A stretch of 44,464 nucleotides of DNA from a virus. Lineage: Duplodnaviria; Heunggongvirae; Uroviricota; Caudoviricetes. Below, in pieces: positions 20,297 through 44,464 of this stretch (its first letter is position 1; each line of letters opens with the position of its first letter). The translations under genes and the position numbers were made by a program. Under the pieces are notes generated by a model. It was given only the letters and a program-made list of their open reading frames with translations. It did not search any database and was not told the origin of the DNA. The stretch spans positions 1 to 44,464 of the IMG/VR virus record IMGVR_UViG_2571042862_000006. The stretch is one strand, 5' to 3'.

Positions 20297-20782
20297 TTAT
20301 TTCAGTTCGTTACCAGGCATTTCTTTTAGCTCTTTCAAATGACAACGATTGAGGCTAAACCACTCCCCGTGCGACCTATAGTTGTAATATTTTTGGTGCA
20401 ATTTGGTTTCAAGCTCTCTATCGGCAGGAATCTTTGCAATTAGATTTAGCTTCCCACCACTCATGCGAGATATCTCTGAAATTCGTTTATTAACCCTGCG
20501 ACTAAACCCTATTTTTGTTAGCCCACTATCTTCAGCATGCAGAACGTACACATATGATTTTTGCGAAGCACTGGGTGCGACTTTGTTGTAATTAATCATG
20601 TCAAACATAAAGCCTTGCTTTAGCAAAGTTTCAAAAAAGATAGAATTAACACACCCATTCCTTCTCAACTCTGCACTTAGCTTGTCAATTTCCTCTATGA
20701 TGTCGCCAGACCCCTTTCCACTTATAAGAAAATCTTGGTACATGCGACCAATTCTTGAGGTAATTTCAACAAAGTTATTCAT
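20297..20782 (-). CDS. T5orf172-domain (GIY-YIG-like) protein
   Basis: Motif block YVYVLHAEDSGLTKIGFSRRVNKRISE...ELETKLHQKYYNYRSHGEWFSL fits the T5orf172/Mug113 family consensus; AT-rich; AAGG before the ATG. Confidence 0.6.
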   Translation of the reverse strand: MNNFVEITSRIGRMYQDFLISGKGSGDIIEEIDKLSAELRRNGCVNSIFFETLLKQGFMFDMINYNKVAPSASQKSYVYVLHAEDSGLTKIGFSRRVNKRISEISRMSGGKLNLIAKIPADRELETKLHQKYYNYRSHGEWFSLNRCHLKELKEMPGNELK

Positions 20783-21126: not shown

Positions 21127-21564
21127 TCATCGAAGGCATTGCGTCCTGATGTACTCCTGCAGGTAGTTAACCTGCGCGGTTATCCTGTCGATTCCACTTC
21201 GGAGACGGTAATAATTGAGTTCAGCATCTGCTGTAAGTCTTGGGCTTTCTCCATCGCCCATGCTGCTGGCTCCGGTCGTTGACTTTGCACAGGTGGCGGC
21301 GACTTGCAGGCGCTTACGACCAGCAGAAACATCAGCGCGGAGACTTTCGATAGTCGCGTTAGCATCAGCAAGTTCCTTTGTATATCTGGCATCGAGTTCT
21401 GCTACATCACGTTGACGCTTCTGCATATCAGCGATGATGGATGTGGCTTTATCGCGCTGTTCTTTATAGGTAATGGCGTTATCACGGTAATGATTAACAG
21501 CCCATGACAGGCAAACGATGATGCAGATAACCAGAGCGGAGATAATCGCGGTGACTCTGCTCAT
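21127..21564 (-). CDS. Rz: i-spanin (Rz)
   Basis: 145 aa immediately after the endolysin with an N-terminal transmembrane segment and coiled-coil body; Rz1 embedded in the +1 frame. Confidence 0.85.
21180..21365 (-). CDS. Rz1: o-spanin lipoprotein (Rz1), embedded within Rz
   Basis: Signal peptide with lipobox (LVVSAC) followed by a Pro-rich segment; start codon choice is uncertain. Confidence 0.65.
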
Positions 21565-22037
21565 GCCTCAATCTCTCTGACCGTTCCGCCTGCTTCTTTG
21601 AATTTTGCAATCAGGCTGTCAGCCTTATGCTCGAACTGACCATAACCAGCGCCCGGCAGTGAAGCCCAGATATTGCTGCAACGGTCGATTGCCTGACGGA
21701 TATCACCGCGATCAATCATCGGTAAAGCGCCACGCTCTTTAATCTGCTGTAGTGCAACAGCGTCCTGGCTTTTCGGAGAGAAGTCTTTCAGGCCAAGTTG
21801 CTTGCGGTAGGCATCCCACCAACGGGAAAGAAGCTGGTAACGTCCGGCTGCTGTTGATTTGAGTTTGGGGTTTAGCGTGACAAGTTTGCGAGGGTGATCG
21901 GAGTAATCAGTGAATAGCTCTCCGCCAACAATGACGTCATAACCATGATTTCTGGTTTTCTGACGTCCGTTATCAGTTCCCTCTGACCACGCCAGCATAT
22001 CGAGGAACGCCTTACGTTGATTATTGATTTCCACCAT
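21561..22037 (-). CDS. R: Endolysin, lambda R-type lytic transglycosylase
   Basis: 158 aa, essentially identical over its length to phage lambda R as remembered. Confidence 0.95.
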
Positions 22038-22344
22038 CTTCTACTCCGGCTTTTTTAGCAGCGAAGCGTTTGATAAGCGAACCAATCGAGTCAGTACCGA
22101 TGTAGCCGATGAACACGCTCGTTATATAAGCGAGATTGCTACTTAGTCCGGCGAAGTCGAGAAGGTCACGAATGAACCAGGCGATAATGGCGCACATCGT
22201 TGCGTCGATTACTGTTTTTGTAAACGCACCGCCATTATATCTGCCGCGAAGGTACGCCATTGCAAACGCAAGGATTGCCCCGATGCCTTGTTCCTTTGCC
22301 GCGAGAATGGCGGCTAACAGGTCATGTTTTTCTGGCATCTTCAT
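22021..22344 (-). CDS. S: Holin/antiholin, lambda S-type
   Basis: 107 aa, near-identical to lambda S including the dual-start [11 protein letters not shown]-terminus; about 250 bp upstream also matches lambda sequence. Confidence 0.95.
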
Positions 22345-22882
22345 GTCTTACCCCCAATAAGGGGATTTGCTCTATTTAATTAGGAATAAGGTCGATTACT
22401 GATAGAACAAATCCAGGCTACTGTGTTTAGTAATCAGATTTGTTCGTGACCGATATGCACGGGCAAAACGGCATGAGGTTGTTAGCGCAACCTCCTGCCA
22501 CCCACTTTCACGAAGGTCATGTGTAGAAAGCCGCAGCATAACTATCACTGATGAATTCAGGATAGCCAGTGGCTACGGCCCAGTTTGGGTTGTGGCGGTC
22601 GGTGCTGAACTCCGACTTAATGACGATAGGCGTGTACCGACGCCTCGTTTTACTTCCTCCGCTTTCACGGCTTCACCCTAGACCAGCTTTACGAAATCCT
22701 CGTAAACCTAACCGCGGCAGATATGACCGGCACGGTGTGCCATATCACGGACCGGAGGGTGTCTCGTTCACCTGATTAACGCATCAGCCTGCGTATTCAC
22801 CACAACGATAAGAGCACTGCGCGGCACCTTTCACCAATTCCGCGAGGTCTGCGGGTTCAATGCTCTTACCTGTTGTGCAAAC

Positions 22883-22923
22883 AAAAAAGCCACCGTTGCA
22901 ACTTAAGAGTCACTAACGGCAGC
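22883..22923 (-). terminator. tR'-like rho-independent terminator downstream of Q
   Basis: Hairpin followed by TTTTTTGTTTGCACAACAGGTAAGAGCATTG, which matches the sequence after lambda tR'. Confidence 0.5.
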
Positions 22924-22933
22924 TTACCCTCTA

Positions 22934-22963
22934 ATTATGGCTAAATGGATAATTGCATGTCAA
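22934..22963 (-). promoter_or_regulatory. Candidate late promoter (pR'-like) overlapping the Q stop codon
   Basis: TTGACA, 18-bp spacer, CATAAT on the minus strand. Not verified; the transcript to the terminator would be only about 45 nt. Confidence 0.35.
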
Positions 22964-23459
22964 GGTTTTTAACAGCAACATGCTTAACTTTCTCAACACG
23001 TTTACGCATTTTGAAAGCATTTTGCATTGGTTGGTACAAAACAAATAATGACGCTTTCAGGATATCGTCAATTTCGTTTCTACAGGTTGCCAGTGAAGGT
23101 TTTCTCCATCCCTCGCCACCGCGTCCACACATCTTGCGTGGCTTTGCAGTCGCGTGATAGTAGGATGCAATTGCTCGCTTAGATGAACCATGAGCGTAGT
23201 AGCTGAGGAGGATGCCAAAGGCTTTCTTGTCAATGCACATGACAGAATCGACGACCTGAGAAATCAACATTCCATCATCATCATTGCACATTGGCCTTGT
23301 CATAACTCTTCCCGGCTCTACGCTCTCCATGAACTTCGCTATTACGCTGCTCATGCGCTTTTCCAGACGACCTGAATAAACCCATGCGCCCCACAGTTCA
23401 AGCCAGCCATTCAGCCACTCATGCTGTTCTTTGGTGAGGTTTAGTTCTCTTATGCCCAT
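22941..23459 (-). CDS. Q: Late-gene antiterminator Q (QuuD-like family, not lambda Q)
   Basis: Position directly upstream of the lysis cassette; blocks [11 protein letters not shown] and [16 protein letters not shown] resemble DLP12 QuuD-type Q proteins. Confidence 0.7.
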
Positions 23460-24121
23460 GCGCCTTCTCCCTGTACCTGAATCAATGTGAGGTTTCCGCA
23501 GAACACTGCGCCGGTATCGATATACATCTGGTTGGCAAACTTGAGTGGTTTCACTGCTGGCGTATGACCAAAGATGAACGTGTCCGCTCCTTTGATTTCT
23601 TTCACGATCCCGTCTTGTGAGTTGCTGATTCGTTCGCGGTTCCAGATTACCTGCTGATGATCAACTGACTTTCCAAACTCGTATTCGTTACAAGGATAAT
23701 CGGCGTGGCAAATGACATATTTTTTATCTTTGCTCACCAGCTCGATGATTAACGGAAGTTCATCTGCTTTATGGGCAAGAGCTTTAGCCAGAATTTCTTT
23801 GTCGTAATCGAGATTAAAGAACCAGCCACCGCCATTAAACAGCCAGTGATTGACGTTTCCACGCTCTGATAAGCCATCAATCATCATTTGCTCATGGTTT
23901 CCACGTACAGCTCGGAACCAGGGGAATGTGATTAATTCCAGACATTCGACGTTCTCTGTACCGCGATCTACCAAATCGCCAACCGAGATAAGCAGGTCTT
24001 TTTTGGTGTCGAATCCTATCGTCTCCAGTTTTTTCATCAGGTTCGTGTAGCATCCGTGCAGATCGCCAACTACCCAAATATTTCGGTATTTGCTGCCATC
24101 AATTCTTTCGTAATAGCGCAT
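23450..24121 (-). CDS. Ser/Thr protein phosphatase (lambda NinI-like)
   Basis: From [25 protein letters not shown] the sequence matches the lambda phosphatase, including GDLVDRG and GNHE metallophosphatase motifs. Confidence 0.85.
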
Positions 24122-29423: not shown

Positions 29424-29720
29424 TCAGAATTGCATATCAATTTGCTTAAAATCCTCGGTGGCGGCCGGGGATTTTTTCTTTGTGATTTCATCAAGCGCAT
29501 ACTTAAAAGCCCTGCTAATCGGACTGATGTCTGATGCCATTCCGAAAGCACACAAGACCGAAGCAATAAATCTCCAGTCCGTTCTGCTTATCTTCGATTC
29601 ATGACAGCCAATCATCTTTGCCAGACCGCGCTGGGTAAGCGTCGACAGGTTGATGAGTAAATCAGTTTCAGCGCGATCAATTTCTCGCTGTGTTGGCTTG
29701 CTGTAGCTTGCTTGTGCCAT
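29424..29720 (-). CDS. cII: CII-like transcriptional activator
   Basis: 98 aa, position after cro; HTH segment and C-terminal ...[18 protein letters not shown] resemble lambda CII. Confidence 0.7.
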
Positions 29721-30164: not shown

Positions 30165-30812
30165 ATGAAAACGATGCATGAAATTATCGGGGAAAGGATA
30201 AAGTCCCTTAGAGAAGCTAAAGGACTTAGCCAGGCTCAATTGGCCAAGCTTTGCGGCTGGGCTGCGCCTTCACGCCTGGGGAACTACGAGTTAGGAACAA
30301 GAAAGGTTAGCGCGGATGACGCGCTGGTTCTTGGGGCGGCACTCGGCGTATCTCCGGCAAAAATAATGTTTGGCGAGGATTCAGACGCCGTATTTCGCCA
30401 ATATGAATACCCGTTATTTTCTTCAGTGCAGGCCGGGCCATTTTCGGAGGTGGGAAGCTACACAGCCAGCGATGCAAAGGCATGGGTCCCAACGACCACA
30501 AAAGCCAGCGAAAAAGCTTTCTGGCTTGAGGTGAAGGGGCATTCAATGACGGCGCCTCAGGGGGTTCGTCCAAGTTTTCCGGAAGGCATGCTGATACTCG
30601 TTGATCCGGCTGAGCCGGTAGAGTCTGGGGATTTCTGCGTGGCTTCTGCAAATGGTGATTCAGAGGCAACGTTCAAGAAGTATGAGAAGGATGCAGGGGT
30701 TAGTTACCTGGTACCTTTAAACCCGGCATATAGAACCCTGGATTGCGACCATAGCTGCCGCATCATAGGCAAGGTAGTTAAGGCGCAGTGGCCTGAAGAG
30801 ACGTTTGGCTGA
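30165..30812 (+). CDS. cI: CI-type repressor (HTH plus S24 LexA-like autopeptidase domain)
   Basis: C-terminal domain resembles the P22 C2 repressor ([13 protein letters not shown]...EGMLILVDP...ATFKKY); N-terminal HTH; true start may be the second ATG at 30174. Confidence 0.85.
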
Positions 30813-40061: not shown

Positions 40062-41348
40062 ATGTCCAGAAATACCCTCAACAAATTAACAGACCGTCAG
40101 TGCAAAGCAGCTAAGCCACGAGACAAAACTTATAAATTGTCTGATGGTGGTGGTCTTTATCTTGAAGTATCCCAGACCGGGTCGAAGTATTGGCGAATGA
40201 AGTATCGCCGCCCATCAGATAAGAAAGAAGACAGACTTGCTTTTGGTGTATATCCAACCATTAGCTTACAAGACGCCAGAGAAAAACGAGACAACGCCAA
40301 AAAGTTGTTAGTCAAGGGGATAGATCCCAAAGCAGAGCAAAGAGCAGCAAAAGCAGAAGAAAAAGGCGCATTCACTTTTGAGACAATAGGACGTCAATGG
40401 GTTGAAAGCCACCAGATGTGGAACGAAGACCACCGAAAACGCGTACTTAGAAGCCTTGAAATGTATATTTTCCCTCACATTGGCACTTCGGATATTCGCA
40501 AACTGGAGGCGATGACAATTTTACCTTTGTTTAAGAAGGTAGATGACGCCGGGAAACACGATACAGCCAACCGACTTAAACAACGAGTTAAGGACATCAT
40601 ACATAGCGCCCGTCTGAGCGGCATTAAGACAGAAATCATCACGAATGATCTCGATGTCCGGTTAATGCAATATGAAACTAAGCATCATGCCGCACTACAT
40701 CCCAGAGATTTACCAGACTTTTTCACTCGATTGGGCAGCTTTAAAGGTAATCCTCTTACCCGCCTTGCCATTGAGCTAACCATGTTGACATTTGTTCGTT
40801 CAAGCGAGTTAAGGTTTGCCCGTTGGAAAGAGTTTGACCTTGATCGGGCTGAGTGGATTATCCCTAAAAAAAGAGAGCCTATCGATGGTGTGAGGTTTTC
40901 CACCCGTGGCACAAAAACGGGAAAAGACGAACATATCGTGCTTCTTAGCCGTCAGGCTGTTTCTATTGTAAAGCAGTTGAGAGAACTAAGCGGAAGCTAC
41001 GATGTTGTGTTTCCGAATGAAAGAAACACCAAAGGCGTGATGAGTGAAAACACGGTAAACAAGGCATTACGCTTAATGGGCTATAACACGCAAGAGGACG
41101 TAACTGGACATGGATTCCGTGCCACAGCCTGTAGTTCCCTGATGGAGTCCGGTTTGTGGCAGGAGGACGCAGTAGAGCGCCAGATGAGCCACAAAGAATA
41201 TAAAGACGTTAAAAGAGCCTACAAGCACAAGGCTGATTACTTAGAAGAGCGCAAACTAATGCTTCAATGGTGGGCAGATTATCTGGACGCCAATCGAGAA
41301 ATACATATAAGCCCTTACGAGTTCGGAAGGAGAACACGCCGTGACTAA
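40062..41348 (+). CDS. Tyrosine integrase, P4-like family (second integrase)
   Basis: 428 aa; N-terminal arm-binding region (LTDRQCKAAKPRDKTYKLSDGGGLYLEV) and catalytic region (HGFRATACS...MLQWWADYLD); clearly distinct from the integrase at 1..1158. Confidence 0.9.
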   Translation: MSRNTLNKLTDRQCKAAKPRDKTYKLSDGGGLYLEVSQTGSKYWRMKYRRPSDKKEDRLAFGVYPTISLQDAREKRDNAKKLLVKGIDPKAEQRAAKAEEKGAFTFETIGRQWVESHQMWNEDHRKRVLRSLEMYIFPHIGTSDIRKLEAMTILPLFKKVDDAGKHDTANRLKQRVKDIIHSARLSGIKTEIITNDLDVRLMQYETKHHAALHPRDLPDFFTRLGSFKGNPLTRLAIELTMLTFVRSSELRFARWKEFDLDRAEWIIPKKREPIDGVRFSTRGTKTGKDEHIVLLSRQAVSIVKQLRELSGSYDVVFPNERNTKGVMSENTVNKALRLMGYNTQEDVTGHGFRATACSSLMESGLWQEDAVERQMSHKEYKDVKRAYKHKADYLEERKLMLQWWADYLDANREIHISPYEFGRRTRRD

Positions 41349-41349
41349 G

Positions 41350-42096
41350 ATGACAGGACTAGATGCGTTTTATAACGAGTCAGAAGATAAAATCTGGTTT
41401 GGTAATCTGATCAGCGAACTGGCAAGACTAAACAATGAAAATGAAAGAATGATCGCTGCCGCTATCTTAAGTAACTACAGATTGAGCAAAGCTAAACCAG
41501 ATACTTTAGGGGGGCTGGGCTTTTATCAGTTCGATTGGGTATCAGGTTTTACAACTAATGACGACTTTGAAAAGCAGTGTGTGGAGTTTTTAGGTCTTCT
41601 GGCTATGGGGCATGAATACAGGGAGAGCCCGATACCGGGGGAAGAAGGGACTTTCAACGTTAGGAAAGGGGAAGACTTTTTATATCACGATGATGAGGAT
41701 GATTGGTATGGGTCTTACGATTCGTTTTATTTCAAGCGCTCCGAGGTTGTGAACTTCTTCCCAGAACTGGATATGAATGTTCCAGATAACGAACCAGAAA
41801 TTGGAGCACTGTCAAAAAAAGTAGAAAGAGAACAAAACTGGAGAGGAAAAGATACGGCTTTAAAGATGATCGCCGGAATGGCGATTGCCTTATTTGAATC
41901 AAGCAAAGATTTCCATAGTGGAGGAAACCTTAGTATCAATAGGGTTAGTGCCCAAGTAATAGAAAACAACATAATATTCGGGAACGATGAAGACAGCGAT
42001 ACCCACCCAGATACATTTCGGAGATTGCTAACGAACGCTTTGGATAAGTACGCCCCCAAATTTAAGAAAAAAGCAACCAAAAAGCGTCCAAAATAA
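41350..42096 (+). CDS. Hypothetical acidic protein in AT-rich DNA
   Basis: About 249-aa ORF beginning immediately after the integrase stop; no family recognised. Confidence 0.5.
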   Translation: MTGLDAFYNESEDKIWFGNLISELARLNNENERMIAAAILSNYRLSKAKPDTLGGLGFYQFDWVSGFTTNDDFEKQCVEFLGLLAMGHEYRESPIPGEEGTFNVRKGEDFLYHDDEDDWYGSYDSFYFKRSEVVNFFPELDMNVPDNEPEIGALSKKVEREQNWRGKDTALKMIAGMAIALFESSKDFHSGGNLSINRVSAQVIENNIIFGNDEDSDTHPDTFRRLLTNALDKYAPKFKKKATKKRPK

Positions 42097-42252
42097 AGGA
42101 AGGATGTTCCCAAATTGTGCGTTAGAACTAAAAAATAACGCCCAATTTGGGGTAATTCTATTCCCAAAAATTTTTTCTCCAAATTCACAGAAAACTTAAA
42201 AAAACAATGATTTACTATCTCACATAGTCAAGCAACGTATTACGAGGTAGAT

Positions 42253-42444
42253 ATGAAAAAGTCGCTGATTCGGCTATCTGAGGTTTTGAAACGCACTGGC
42301 TATAGCAAGGCGTGGGTATATGCTCTGATGAGCCGAGGACAATTCCCCCAATCAGTCAAGATTGGTGCTCGCGCAATAGCTTTTATTGAAAGCGAGATCG
42401 ATGACTGGATCGATCAACGTATAGCCGAATCGCGTAGTAACTAA
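42253..42444 (+). CDS. alpA: AlpA-family transcriptional regulator
   Basis: 63-aa HTH protein (LIRLSEVLKRTGYSKAWVYALMSRGQFPQSVKIGARAIAFIESEIDDWI) matching the AlpA consensus. Confidence 0.75.
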   Translation: MKKSLIRLSEVLKRTGYSKAWVYALMSRGQFPQSVKIGARAIAFIESEIDDWIDQRIAESRSN

Positions 42445-42492
42445 AGAACAGAAACAAACAGGATACAAACAATACGTTATTAGGTATTAAGA

Positions 42493-42684
42493 ATGCAGTT
42501 GAAACCTACCAATCAAAAGCTGAACGTAACCCATGTTGATTTTGAAACCTTCGCGGCACTGATTAGATCAGAGCCACAAAAGGTGAGCACCAGCACCTGG
42601 GTTTATGATGTGAAATCCACCAGCGGTGGAAAAGCTATCGGCATTGCCTCTGGCGATGATTACTTAGTAATAGATCTGATTTAA
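42493..42684 (+). CDS. Hypothetical protein, 63 aa
   Basis: ORF only. Confidence 0.35.
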   Translation: MQLKPTNQKLNVTHVDFETFAALIRSEPQKVSTSTWVYDVKSTSGGKAIGIASGDDYLVIDLI

Positions 42685-42765
42685 TCGCACAAAAATTGTA
42701 GAGTAATTTGGGGAGACAGGAAGTCTCCTCCATATTACATTTTGGTACAACAGTAAGGGAATAAA

Positions 42766-42960
42766 ATGATTAATTACCTGACCGCTAAAGACGCAGCAGA
42801 ATATCTTGGCGTCTGTCTGTCACGCTTCTATCAGTTAAAGCGATATATCCGAAGCTTTCCTCCCTATATAAATCAGACCATCAATGGACGCAAGCGCCGG
42901 GTGTGGCTTGCCTCCAGCCTTGATCAATTTGCCGACAGATTTCTGGGGGGACGAAAATGA
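42766..42960 (+). CDS. Small HTH DNA-binding protein
   Basis: LTAKDAAEYLGVCLSRFYQLKR resembles an HTH_17/excisionase-type helix-turn-helix. Confidence 0.5.
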   Translation: MINYLTAKDAAEYLGVCLSRFYQLKRYIRSFPPYINQTINGRKRRVWLASSLDQFADRFLGGRK

Positions 42961-43343
42961 GCACTCTTACACGCTCTCAGGTCGCCGCGAATATACGCGA
43001 TATCCTACTAAGTGGCAGGAAGCTTACCCCAAAAGAGTTTGACGACATATTAAGGAAAGCCGGAAATCACGAACGTAGTCGCGTTTTAACGCTGTTACGC
43101 AACGATTGGGGAATTCCTGTTGAGCAGTTTAAAACAGAGGCGTATCACGTCACAGAACGCAATTTAGAAGCATACCACAGCGATAAAGACGAAACATTGA
43201 AGATCTGGAGGACGAACGCCAGATATGTAAAGACATTGCGTAAGGTAAACATAACGTTGTCGTTGTTGCGTGGGCTGGTGGGTAAAGTGCCTGAAGACAC
43301 GCTTAGAACTGTTTACAAGGGTATTGAAACCAAATACCTGTGA
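42957..43343 (+). CDS. Hypothetical protein, 128 aa
   Basis: ORF with ATGA overlap to the upstream gene. Confidence 0.45.
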   Translation: MSTLTRSQVAANIRDILLSGRKLTPKEFDDILRKAGNHERSRVLTLLRNDWGIPVEQFKTEAYHVTERNLEAYHSDKDETLKIWRTNARYVKTLRKVNITLSLLRGLVGKVPEDTLRTVYKGIETKYL

Positions 43344-43411
43344 TTGACAAAGCAGAAAGCCGACTTTGCGAGAGTCGGCTTTGAAGCAATTGAAATATAT
43401 GAACTTTACAC

Positions 43412-44464
43412 ATGGAATTATACGATAAAGACGCGAGTCTATCCACAAAATCACAAGCCGTAATCAATCACATCAATGGTCGCACATTAGCTTATGTGAG
43501 ATCAGTTACGCACAAACGTAATGAATTAAAGGCGGAGAATAAACGCCAATCATCAAAGGCTAACCACTGCATACCACCAGCTTGGACAAAGAAGAAATGG
43601 CGTACAATGAGGCGAGCTTTGTTTACTCTGGATGTCGAATCAACTAGTGGTATCCCCTACTCCTTTACCTTCAGACCCGTTAAGGGAACAACGCCAGAGA
43701 AATTCAACAAAGCGTTAAAGGCACTTACCAGATGGTTGACTTCGAAAGGCAATCAGTGGGTTTACGTCATGGAGTGGGCTCAACACCAGTCAGAGCCGCA
43801 TGTACACGCAATAATTATGGTGAACGAAAGAAGCATTAATGGGCAAGCAGGCAAAATTGTCAGCAAATGGGTAACACTGGCAAACAATGCAATCCCATCA
43901 AATGTTCCTCCCCAGTGGGATCTAGATTTGAAAGGTCAGCAATATTCAGAGCCTACAAGGTGTATAGGTAAACAGATTGATTACATGGCAAAACCCGAAA
44001 CTAAGTTAAATGACTTTAATAGAGAGGCGAGCAAGAGCCTATATGATTGGTCAGATGCCAACGTTTGGGGTTATTCGAATGGCTGGGCGCGGCATGAGAT
44101 AAAAAAAGAAACACTTTCTATCACTGGCTTTCATGCTGTAAGACGCATACTAAAAGCCATTCAGGCATCAAGGAAAGACAACTACAAAGTTAAGCGACAG
44201 ATACAGCGTACATTGAAACGACAAGACATAAATCGCTCACCAATCACCCCGTTCCAAGCACCGTTAATTAGCAAACACGATTGGGATTTATCAGTGATAG
44301 CGGTCACCAAAGAGGCAGAGACAGAGCGCAGGGAGTTACTATCCTCACAGACAATAAACTCGAACAAAGTACAAACCCACCCGCTGTTAAGGATGTTAAG
44401 AAAAGCACGAGTGAGAGCATCCAGAGCCAGAAGAGAAAGCGGAGGTTATGACCATTACTACTAG
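43412..44464 (+). CDS. Candidate rolling-circle replication initiator (HUH endonuclease superfamily)
   Basis: HUH-like motif (EPHVHAIIMV) and downstream Tyr motif (IDYMAKPETK); basic C-terminal tail; ORF ends at the last base of the window. Confidence 0.5.
   Translation: MELYDKDASLSTKSQAVINHINGRTLAYVRSVTHKRNELKAENKRQSSKANHCIPPAWTKKKWRTMRRALFTLDVESTSGIPYSFTFRPVKGTTPEKFNKALKALTRWLTSKGNQWVYVMEWAQHQSEPHVHAIIMVNERSINGQAGKIVSKWVTLANNAIPSNVPPQWDLDLKGQQYSEPTRCIGKQIDYMAKPETKLNDFNREASKSLYDWSDANVWGYSNGWARHEIKKETLSITGFHAVRRILKAIQASRKDNYKVKRQIQRTLKRQDINRSPITPFQAPLISKHDWDLSVIAVTKEAETERRELLSSQTINSNKVQTHPLLRMLRKARVRASRARRESGGYDHYY

Follow-up and report, generated by a model that had tools for sequence, protein, structure and literature searches.

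The DNA analysed here, referred to as the window, is a 44,464-nt stretch covering the IMG/VR virus record IMGVR_UViG_2571042862_000006. It is a P22-like (Lederbergvirus-type) E. coli prophage whose genes include intS (1-1158), RecT, cI, cII and a nin region, together with a head-binding tailspike and portal, coat and terminase genes of P22 type. We focus on its late control region, where the gene for a Q antiterminator meets the lysis genes. All genes of this cassette lie on the minus strand and are transcribed in the order ninI (24121..23450), Q (23459..22941), a 596-nt non-coding stretch, S, R and Rz. The 3' end of ninI overlaps the start of Q, every open reading frame (ORF) in the series ninI to Rz is intact, and the lysis genes are followed on the same strand by the virion genes as late genes. 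An initial annotation had described 22345-23459 as a single junction between a non-lambda Q, with a promoter and a terminator at its stop codon, and lambda-identical lysis genes. Our analysis makes it very likely that the region is a known Q21-type late antitermination cassette, carrying the Sf6/L allele of Q, in a P22-like lambdoid prophage and joined to lambda-type lysis genes. The control features are as follows.

22941..23459, minus strand: Q antiterminator of the phage 21 family (Sf6 gp59 / phage L gp23 allele), 172 amino acids (PF06530, PHROG 943).
22927..23195, minus strand: specificity segment, comprising the C-terminal half of Q (beginning near codon 89), the -35, the binding element for Q (QBE), the -10 and the start site, with about 68% identity to phage 21 between flanks of 98% and 100%.
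22958..22963, minus strand: -35 of the late promoter pR', TTGACA (consensus scan; aligns with the annotated phage 21 pR' -35).
22939..22954, minus strand: predicted QBE, direct 8-bp repeats QBEu AATTATCC (22954-22947) and QBEd ATTTAGCC (22946-22939), by positional homology to the phage 21 QBE.
22934..22939, minus strand: -10 of pR', CATAAT (consensus scan; aligns with the phage 21 -10, AACACT).
22920..22927, minus strand: predicted transcription start near 22927 (a G), followed by the sigma-dependent pause element TAAGCTG (22926-22920), both placed by aligning the window with the start and pause element annotated in phage 21.
22883..22925, minus strand: intrinsic terminator tR', a 17-bp bulged hairpin (22925-22887) and U-tract UUUUUU (22888-22883), by folding and by identity to the phage 21 tR'.

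The Q protein belongs to the phage 21 family. Its ORF matches Pfam PF06530 with an E value of 1.3e-25 (90 bits), is 85% identical to phage 21 Q (Q21) over 162 residues and matches the Q21 structures PDB 6JNX and 6P18 with E values of about 1e-91; an NCBIfam search returned no name for it. Its precise relative is phage 21 Q, namely the Sf6/L/ST64T gp23 allele. BLASTP against lambda Q gave an E value of 4.2 without a meaningful alignment, which places the protein outside the lambda Q family, and the initial description of a QuuD-type rather than a lambda-type Q is right at the level of the Pfam family. The Q proteins of phage L/ST64T (gp23), Sf6 (gp59), CUS-3, HK75 and Huey are 97-99% identical to that of the window, and their QBE, promoter and terminator are alike; only point differences separate the window from its Sf6-type relatives, such as Cys75 and a G for A at 22929. 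We compared the window Q with the list of RNA polymerase contact residues of Q21 (PMC6606751), and all ten (W26, V27, V39, K42, S46, K79, G82, I83, H90 and I97) are identical.

As the reference for the control sites we used the complete phage 21 genome OL657228 (found via PMC9119081), whose literature-referenced late-control annotation lists the -35, QBE, -10, start, sigma-dependent pause element and terminator, followed by tRNA-Asn and tRNA-Thr. The promoter seen in the initial annotation as overlapping the end of Q is indeed there: TTGACA (22963-22958) and CATAAT (22939-22934) lie 18 nt apart, match 11 of the 12 consensus positions and straddle the Q stop codon TAG (22943-22941). The stop sits in the pR' spacer, inside QBEd, since the window Q is 10 amino acids longer than phage 21 Q. 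The pause element TAAGCTG is identical to the annotated one of phage 21, and over the 44 bp that begin with it and finish with the T-run the two sequences show 100% identity.

The hairpin and T-run that had been placed within about 45 nt of the promoter were found at 22925-22887 and 22888-22883. A simple terminator scan missed tR', and direct folding detected it: the segment 22930..22878 folds with -20.2 kcal/mol, compared with -10.6 +/- 2.3 for shuffled sequences (z -4.26). From the predicted start to the terminator end, the leader RNA would be about 45 nt long. The initial annotation regarded this promoter-to-terminator distance as atypical and the promoter call as tentative. The comparison with phage 21 reverses that judgement: the annotated start of phage 21 lies at locus position 3542 and the terminator end at 3591, the terminator thus ending ~46-50 nt past the start, with a leader of about 45-50 nt. 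By this comparison, a distance of about 45 nt is canonical for the phage 21-type family, and because the 44-bp block is identical and the spacing is that of phage 21, the spacing strengthens the promoter call. Records of related phages carry matching annotations. The Sf6 record names a "P R' nearly identical to phage 21 late promoter", a "qut site" and "t R'", the HK75 record names pR' and Tr', and in the CUS-3 record tR' falls in a "boundary sequence", bsq4.

All the hallmarks of a Q21-type cassette are present on comparison, namely a Q of this family, a pR' at the 3' end of Q, the QBE repeats, the pause element, tR' and the polymerase-contact residues; read-through is predicted by homology. 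What the DNA itself shows is the family of Q, both promoter hexamers, the repeats, a pause element and a terminator identical to those of phage 21, how the terminator folds and the order of the genes. The start site, pausing, Q loading and antitermination itself would carry over by homology to phage 21.

We then propose a mechanistic model, taken from the work on phage 21 (bioRxiv 10.1101/651190; PMC6606751). Host sigma-70 RNA polymerase would initiate at pR', with the start near 22927, and the -10-like pause element TAAGCT (+2 to +7) would catch it at once. If Q is absent, transcription would terminate at the tR' hairpin and U-tract and release a leader RNA of about 45 nt. Once Q has been made as the last gene of the early-right operon, two Q protomers would bind the direct repeats AATTATCC/ATTTAGCC and then engage the paused polymerase. 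One of these protomers would make a ring within the RNA exit channel, and this ring would let only single-stranded RNA pass. The tR' hairpin would be blocked by it, and the polymerase would read through into S, R, Rz and the virion genes. In the phage 21 system, GreB enhances antitermination by Q21 (PMC6606751).

The part of the cassette that departs from phage 21 is confined to one segment. The sliding identity between the window and phage 21 is 98% from 23470 to ~23195, about 68% over 23195-22927 and 100% over 22926-22883, so that Q codons 1 to ~90 are 98% identical at the DNA level. Among the base-reading residues of Q21 (H95, R113, A124, R127 and R128), R113, A124 and R127 are kept in the window Q, and H95R and R128N are replacements. 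The annotated QBE of phage 21 consists of QBEu ATTGAGCA and QBEd AATGAGCA; the repeats of the window stand in the same register and have another sequence. In the 11 phages compared, residue 128 varies together with base 4 of each QBE octamer. Arg128 goes with G (TGAGCA) in phages 21, JEP4, Nil2, JLK-2012 and SF11, and Asn128 goes with T in the window, CUS-3, HK75, Sf6 and HK629 (TTAGCC/TTATCC) as well as in the Proteus phage Pm34 (TATCA/TTAGCA).

To describe how well the arrangement is conserved, we took 80 IMG/VR loci carrying the Q allele of the window. The promoter/QBE layout is kept in 71 of them, and the terminator is exact in 63. Within those 71 loci the QBEu is AATTATCC in 38, making it the commonest form, and AATTAGCC in 33. 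CUS-3, HK75 and L also have AATTATCC, and Sf6 has AATTAGCC, which gives a more perfect repeat.

Taken together, the polymerase-contacting N-terminal half of Q21 was kept and the DNA-reading half changed along with its site, probably giving the allele a target specificity of its own. Because of H95R and R128N, and of subsites TTATCC and TTAGCC instead of TGAGCA, the window Q does not share the specificity features of phage 21, which is why we class it within the Q21 family as a member whose specificity probably differs. This proposal has precedents. The phage L genome paper (PMC8022706) gave AATTATCC/AtTTAgCC as the likely QBE for this Q allele, noted that the differences from Q21 fall in the QBE-contacting segment and already proposed a separate specificity, and an "Sf6" specificity type was named in work on epsilon34 (PMC2629481). 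It is tempting to speculate further that the R95/N128 allele recognises AATTA(T/G)CC/ATTTAGCC and not the phage 21 site, that co-resident Q21-family prophages would be insulated from one another in consequence, and that residue 128 would be the main determinant; we give this joint proposal an even chance of holding as a whole. In the literature the distinct specificity of the allele is predicted, and we found no experimental test of it.

Several observations weigh against the reading of the region as a working Q21-type cassette. Hexamer counts alone show no enrichment, with 3 promoter-like sites against 2.5 expected. HK629 shares the Q allele, -35, QBE and -10 of the window, yet its initially transcribed region and terminator are replaced by unrelated sequence directly past the -10, and its annotators placed the putative pR' elsewhere, downstream of a terminator behind the same Q allele. 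A literature search found no transcript mapping or protein assay for this Q allele or locus, and the QBE assignment and the separate specificity are predictions. On the hexamer counts and the HK629 annotation one could argue that TTGACA/CATAAT is a chance match at the end of Q, that the true late promoter lies elsewhere, for example past the hairpin, and that the hairpin merely ends the early-right operon. We find this scarcely credible. The hexamers, the spacer repeats and the next 44 bp align base for base with the annotated pR', QBE, pause element and tR' of phage 21, whose pR' is the promoter of the structural and in vitro antitermination work on Q21; the architecture recurs in most of the related loci (71/80, as above); and the coding strand between the hairpin and S holds no other promoter-like site matching at least 9 of 12 positions. 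It is this homology to the annotated phage 21 pR', and not the hexamer counts, that supports the pR' call. HK629 may in turn be an experiment of nature on whether the pause element and the terminator can be exchanged.

The cassette could also be an inert relic in a cryptic prophage, in which Q, pR' or QBE no longer cooperate, for example owing to Y75C in Q or to the T for G in QBEu. Residue 75 is indeed Cys here and Tyr in most relatives, and the QBEu AATTATCC is a less perfect repeat than the AATTAGCC of Sf6. However, Cys75 also occurs in phage JEP4, and the QBEu of the window is the prevailing form and that of CUS-3, HK75 and L. The unbroken ORFs from ninI to Rz, the 98% identity of the region to phage Huey and the complete P22-like complement of virion, lysis, replication and immunity genes in the window further argue against decay, and a relic is in our view very improbable. 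Slightly different in kind is the idea that the constitutive ~45-nt pR'-tR' leader also has a role in trans in lysogens, as a small regulatory RNA of the kind of StxS in Stx phages. An RNA initiated at pR' and terminated at tR' can be an Hfq-bound regulator (PMC7547250), the same paper notes analogous short RNAs of unknown function from phages 21, 82, phi80 and P22, and the 44-bp block is invariant between two Q alleles with diverged flanks. That invariance is accounted for by the cis roles of pause element and terminator and by the use of the block as a recombination joint. Moreover, the predicted RNA is nearly all hairpin, with at most 5 unpaired 5' nucleotides left as a seed, has no Rfam match, and differs from StxS, which belongs with another Q clade and derives from a leader of 258 nt. 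A role in trans therefore appears highly improbable, and the Q21-type antitermination cassette remains the reading we prefer.

The Q21-type cassette of the window can be set against three known systems. It shares with phage 21 the Q family, the -35 hexamer, two 8-bp repeats in the spacer, the pause element, the terminator and the leader of about 45 nt. It differs from phage 21 in the -10 (AACACT there, CATAAT here), in the QBE (ATTGAGCA/AATGAGCA there, AATTATCC/ATTTAGCC here), in the length of Q and in what lies downstream: tRNA-Asn, tRNA-Thr and an S21 pinholin/SAR endolysin in phage 21, a lambda-type spacer, S and R in the window. With lambda it shares the regulatory logic, the genome position between ninI and S, and the sequences of about 30 bp from the terminator T-run, of the S leader, of S and of R, whereas Q is unrelated and the promoter and terminator-hairpin sequences are other ones. 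The lambda pR'-tR' leader is about 194 nt long, compared with about 45 nt in the window. Like StxS of the Stx phages, the leader RNA would come from a constitutive late promoter and be terminated at tR' in lysogens; StxS, in contrast, is processed to 74 nt out of a 258-nt leader, and the Q clade linked with it has 144 amino acids.

The genes and segments that flank the cassette, on which the mosaic structure is read, are the following.

23450..24121, minus strand: ninI, lambda-like serine/threonine phosphatase (Pfam Metallophos; 95.4% nucleotide identity to lambda ninI).
22857..22888, minus strand: lambda-like patch beginning in the terminator T-run, 29/32 (90.6%) identical to lambda 44776-44807.
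22595..22856, minus strand: non-lambda spacer of ~262-263 nt, in the slot of tRNA-Asn/tRNA-Thr in phage 21 and Sf6.
22345..22594, minus strand: lambda-like S leader (bsq3 of CUS-3), 95.6% identical to lambda 44936-45185.
22021..22344, minus strand: S holin/antiholin with a Met-Lys-Met dual start (PF05106), 99.1% nucleotide and amino acid identity to lambda S.
21561..22037, minus strand: R endolysin, 96.0% nucleotide and 98.1% amino acid identity to lambda R.
21127..21564, minus strand: Rz spanin (PF03245), lambda-like at the 5' end only, 67.7% nucleotide and 59% amino acid identity to lambda Rz.

The dual-start holin, the homologue of the lambda R transglycosylase and the Rz spanin, in this order, constitute a lambda-type lysis cassette. 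To call these genes lambda-identical was nevertheless an overstatement, given 99.1% for S, 96.0% for R and 67.7% for Rz. The related claim that lambda similarity runs from the terminator through S and R holds for the patch 22888-22857 (whose core, 22879-22857, is 23/23 identical to lambda), for the S leader, for S and for R, and fails for 22856-22595, which has no significant match in lambda. In the pairwise alignment of 22345..22930 to lambda that had been suggested as a check, 273 of the 586 nt align.

A non-lambda Q joined to lambda-like lysis genes is therefore what is found, although on alignment there is a series of joints and not a single one at the terminator. At the ninI/Q boundary, lambda similarity (97.9%, from 23600) ends at 23457, at the Q start codon, and the lambda record carries a misc_recomb mark at the same boundary. 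A second joint, relative to phage 21, lies inside Q at ~23195, near codon 90, and a third at ~22927, beside the start site. The fourth is the terminator T-run, after which phage 21 and Sf6 go on with ATTTGGGTCAG... (the start of tRNA-Asn), and the window, CUS-3, HK75, Huey and JEP4 go on with GTTTGCACAACAGGTAAGAGCATTGA, equal to lambda 44785-44807. Lambda similarity ends at 22857 (joint 5) and restarts at 22594 (joint 6). Finally, lambda identity collapses inside Rz near 21450 (joint 7), a position that matches the bsq7 boundary annotated in Sf6 Rz.

Both Q alleles occur with both downstream types, and past tR' the 80 IMG/VR loci show 38 tRNA-type and 25 lambda-type continuations. Since both alleles pair with both types, the invariant terminator block is a recurrent exchange point. 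Our comparisons indicate that the cassette is joined to the lambda-type lysis genes via short conserved blocks that act as recombination joints, namely the terminator T-run and the S leader, the first ~70 nt of which are common to phage 21 too. Two of the "boundary sequences" in the CUS-3 record correspond to these positions: bsq4 runs from just past the Q stop to just past the T-run, and bsq3 is 241 bp before S. Our search of the literature for the idea of "boundary sequences" turned up no open text in which bsq3 and bsq4 are defined, and we used the CUS-3 and Sf6 record annotations. Among the phages with this Q allele, CUS-3, HK75 and Huey resemble the window in having the lambda-type continuation and lambda-like S, R and Rz; in Sf6 and L, unlike in the window, tR' is followed by tRNA genes, the spacer of HK75 is shorter, and HK629 carries an HNH endonuclease gene as an insertion.

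The slot between tR' and the S leader varies widely. Phage 21 and Sf6 have tRNA-Asn/tRNA-Thr there, JLK-2012 has three tRNAs, Nil2 has Ile/Arg/Arg tRNAs, HK629 has the HNH endonuclease gene, HK75 has the shorter spacer, and the window has non-coding filler, which is present at full length in Huey (99.2%) and CUS-3. ARAGORN found no tRNA in the spacer of the window, CUS-3 or HK75, and a search of the spacer against Rfam gave nothing at the gathering threshold and, in permissive mode, only a chance snoRNA match (E 3.3). A T-arm-like string at ~22615-22595 aligns with the tRNA 3' ends of other phages; we rejected it as a tRNA remnant, as it is a vestige at most. Two ORFs were likewise set aside: a 68-amino-acid antisense ORF at 22569-22775 (plus strand), hypothetical in phage Huey and without a PHROG match, was treated as spurious, and a 50-amino-acid ORF at 22396-22548 (minus strand), which matches a PHROG of unknown function, was not counted, as it lies inside the lambda-like S leader and no gene is annotated there in lambda.

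Directly past tR', 22802..22877 (minus strand) forms a long hairpin of -36 kcal/mol (z -4.45). Its outer stem (CACAACAGGTAAGAGCATTG / CAGTGCTCTTATCGTTGTG) is common to lambda 44787-44860, its interior differs, and the lambda counterpart folds with -26.3 kcal/mol (z -2.5). We considered this hairpin as a second intrinsic terminator and rejected it, as no U-run stands behind it. About 40 nt of the spacer at 22819-22780 (minus strand; CAGTGCTCTTATCGTTGTGGTGAATACGCAGGCTGATGCG) match, at ~92%, intergenic DNA of many otherwise unrelated siphophages of Klebsiella, Salmonella and Enterobacter; in IME207 the match is flanked by the gene of the major tail protein and a hypothetical gene.

One further regulatory candidate lies within Q on the opposite strand.

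23134..23166, plus strand: paQ-like antisense promoter, with a CII-type site TTGCGTGGCTTTGC (23134-23147) and a -10-like TAGGAT (23161-23166), by pattern match and by a position homologous to the annotated phage 21 paQ and CII site.

A CII-family gene is present at 29424-29720, and a second TTGC-N6-TTGC occurs at 29698-29711 (plus strand), at the 5' end of cII, the location expected for pRE. Elsewhere in the window, a 161-amino-acid ORF with a T5orf172/MUG113 domain (20297-20782, minus strand) between Rz and the small terminase gene is an accessory ("moron"-like) gene of the late operon. An ARAGORN "tRNA-Ala(cgc)" of 83 nt at 30363-30445 (plus strand) lies inside the ORF of a cI-type repressor (30165-30812; HTH and Peptidase_S24) and is almost certainly a false positive. 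E. coli chromosomes that are near-identical carry this prophage family beside tRNA-Arg; intS marks one of its ends and a torI-type excisionase the other. Past the excisionase end, the window carries a second tyrosine integrase (40062-41348) and, running off its edge, an ORF like a rolling-circle Rep (43412-44464); 40062-44464 (plus strand) looks like a separate small integrative element in tandem insertion, and the stretch is 100% identical in several E. coli chromosomes.

To analyze the distribution of the Q-to-S arrangement, we searched phage-genome records and complete E. coli genomes. The stretch is found with 97-98% identity in phages Huey and CUS-3 and nearly whole in HK75, Sf6 and HF4s, and 242 of 5426 complete E. 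coli genomes have it at 80% coverage or more. The arrangement is thus neither rare nor an assembly artefact. The cassette, the QBE of this allele and the boundary sequences are already known, and the region is a regulatory cassette of textbook kind in a prophage type that is common. It is chiefly useful for annotating pR', QBE, pause element and tR' correctly, at exact coordinates. If the specificity of the allele is indeed distinct, the late switches of co-resident Q21-family prophages would be insulated from one another. The locus further offers a clean natural example of how lambdoid phages swap a "specificity cassette", composed of the DNA-reading half of Q and its binding site, as well as late modules, via short conserved joints.

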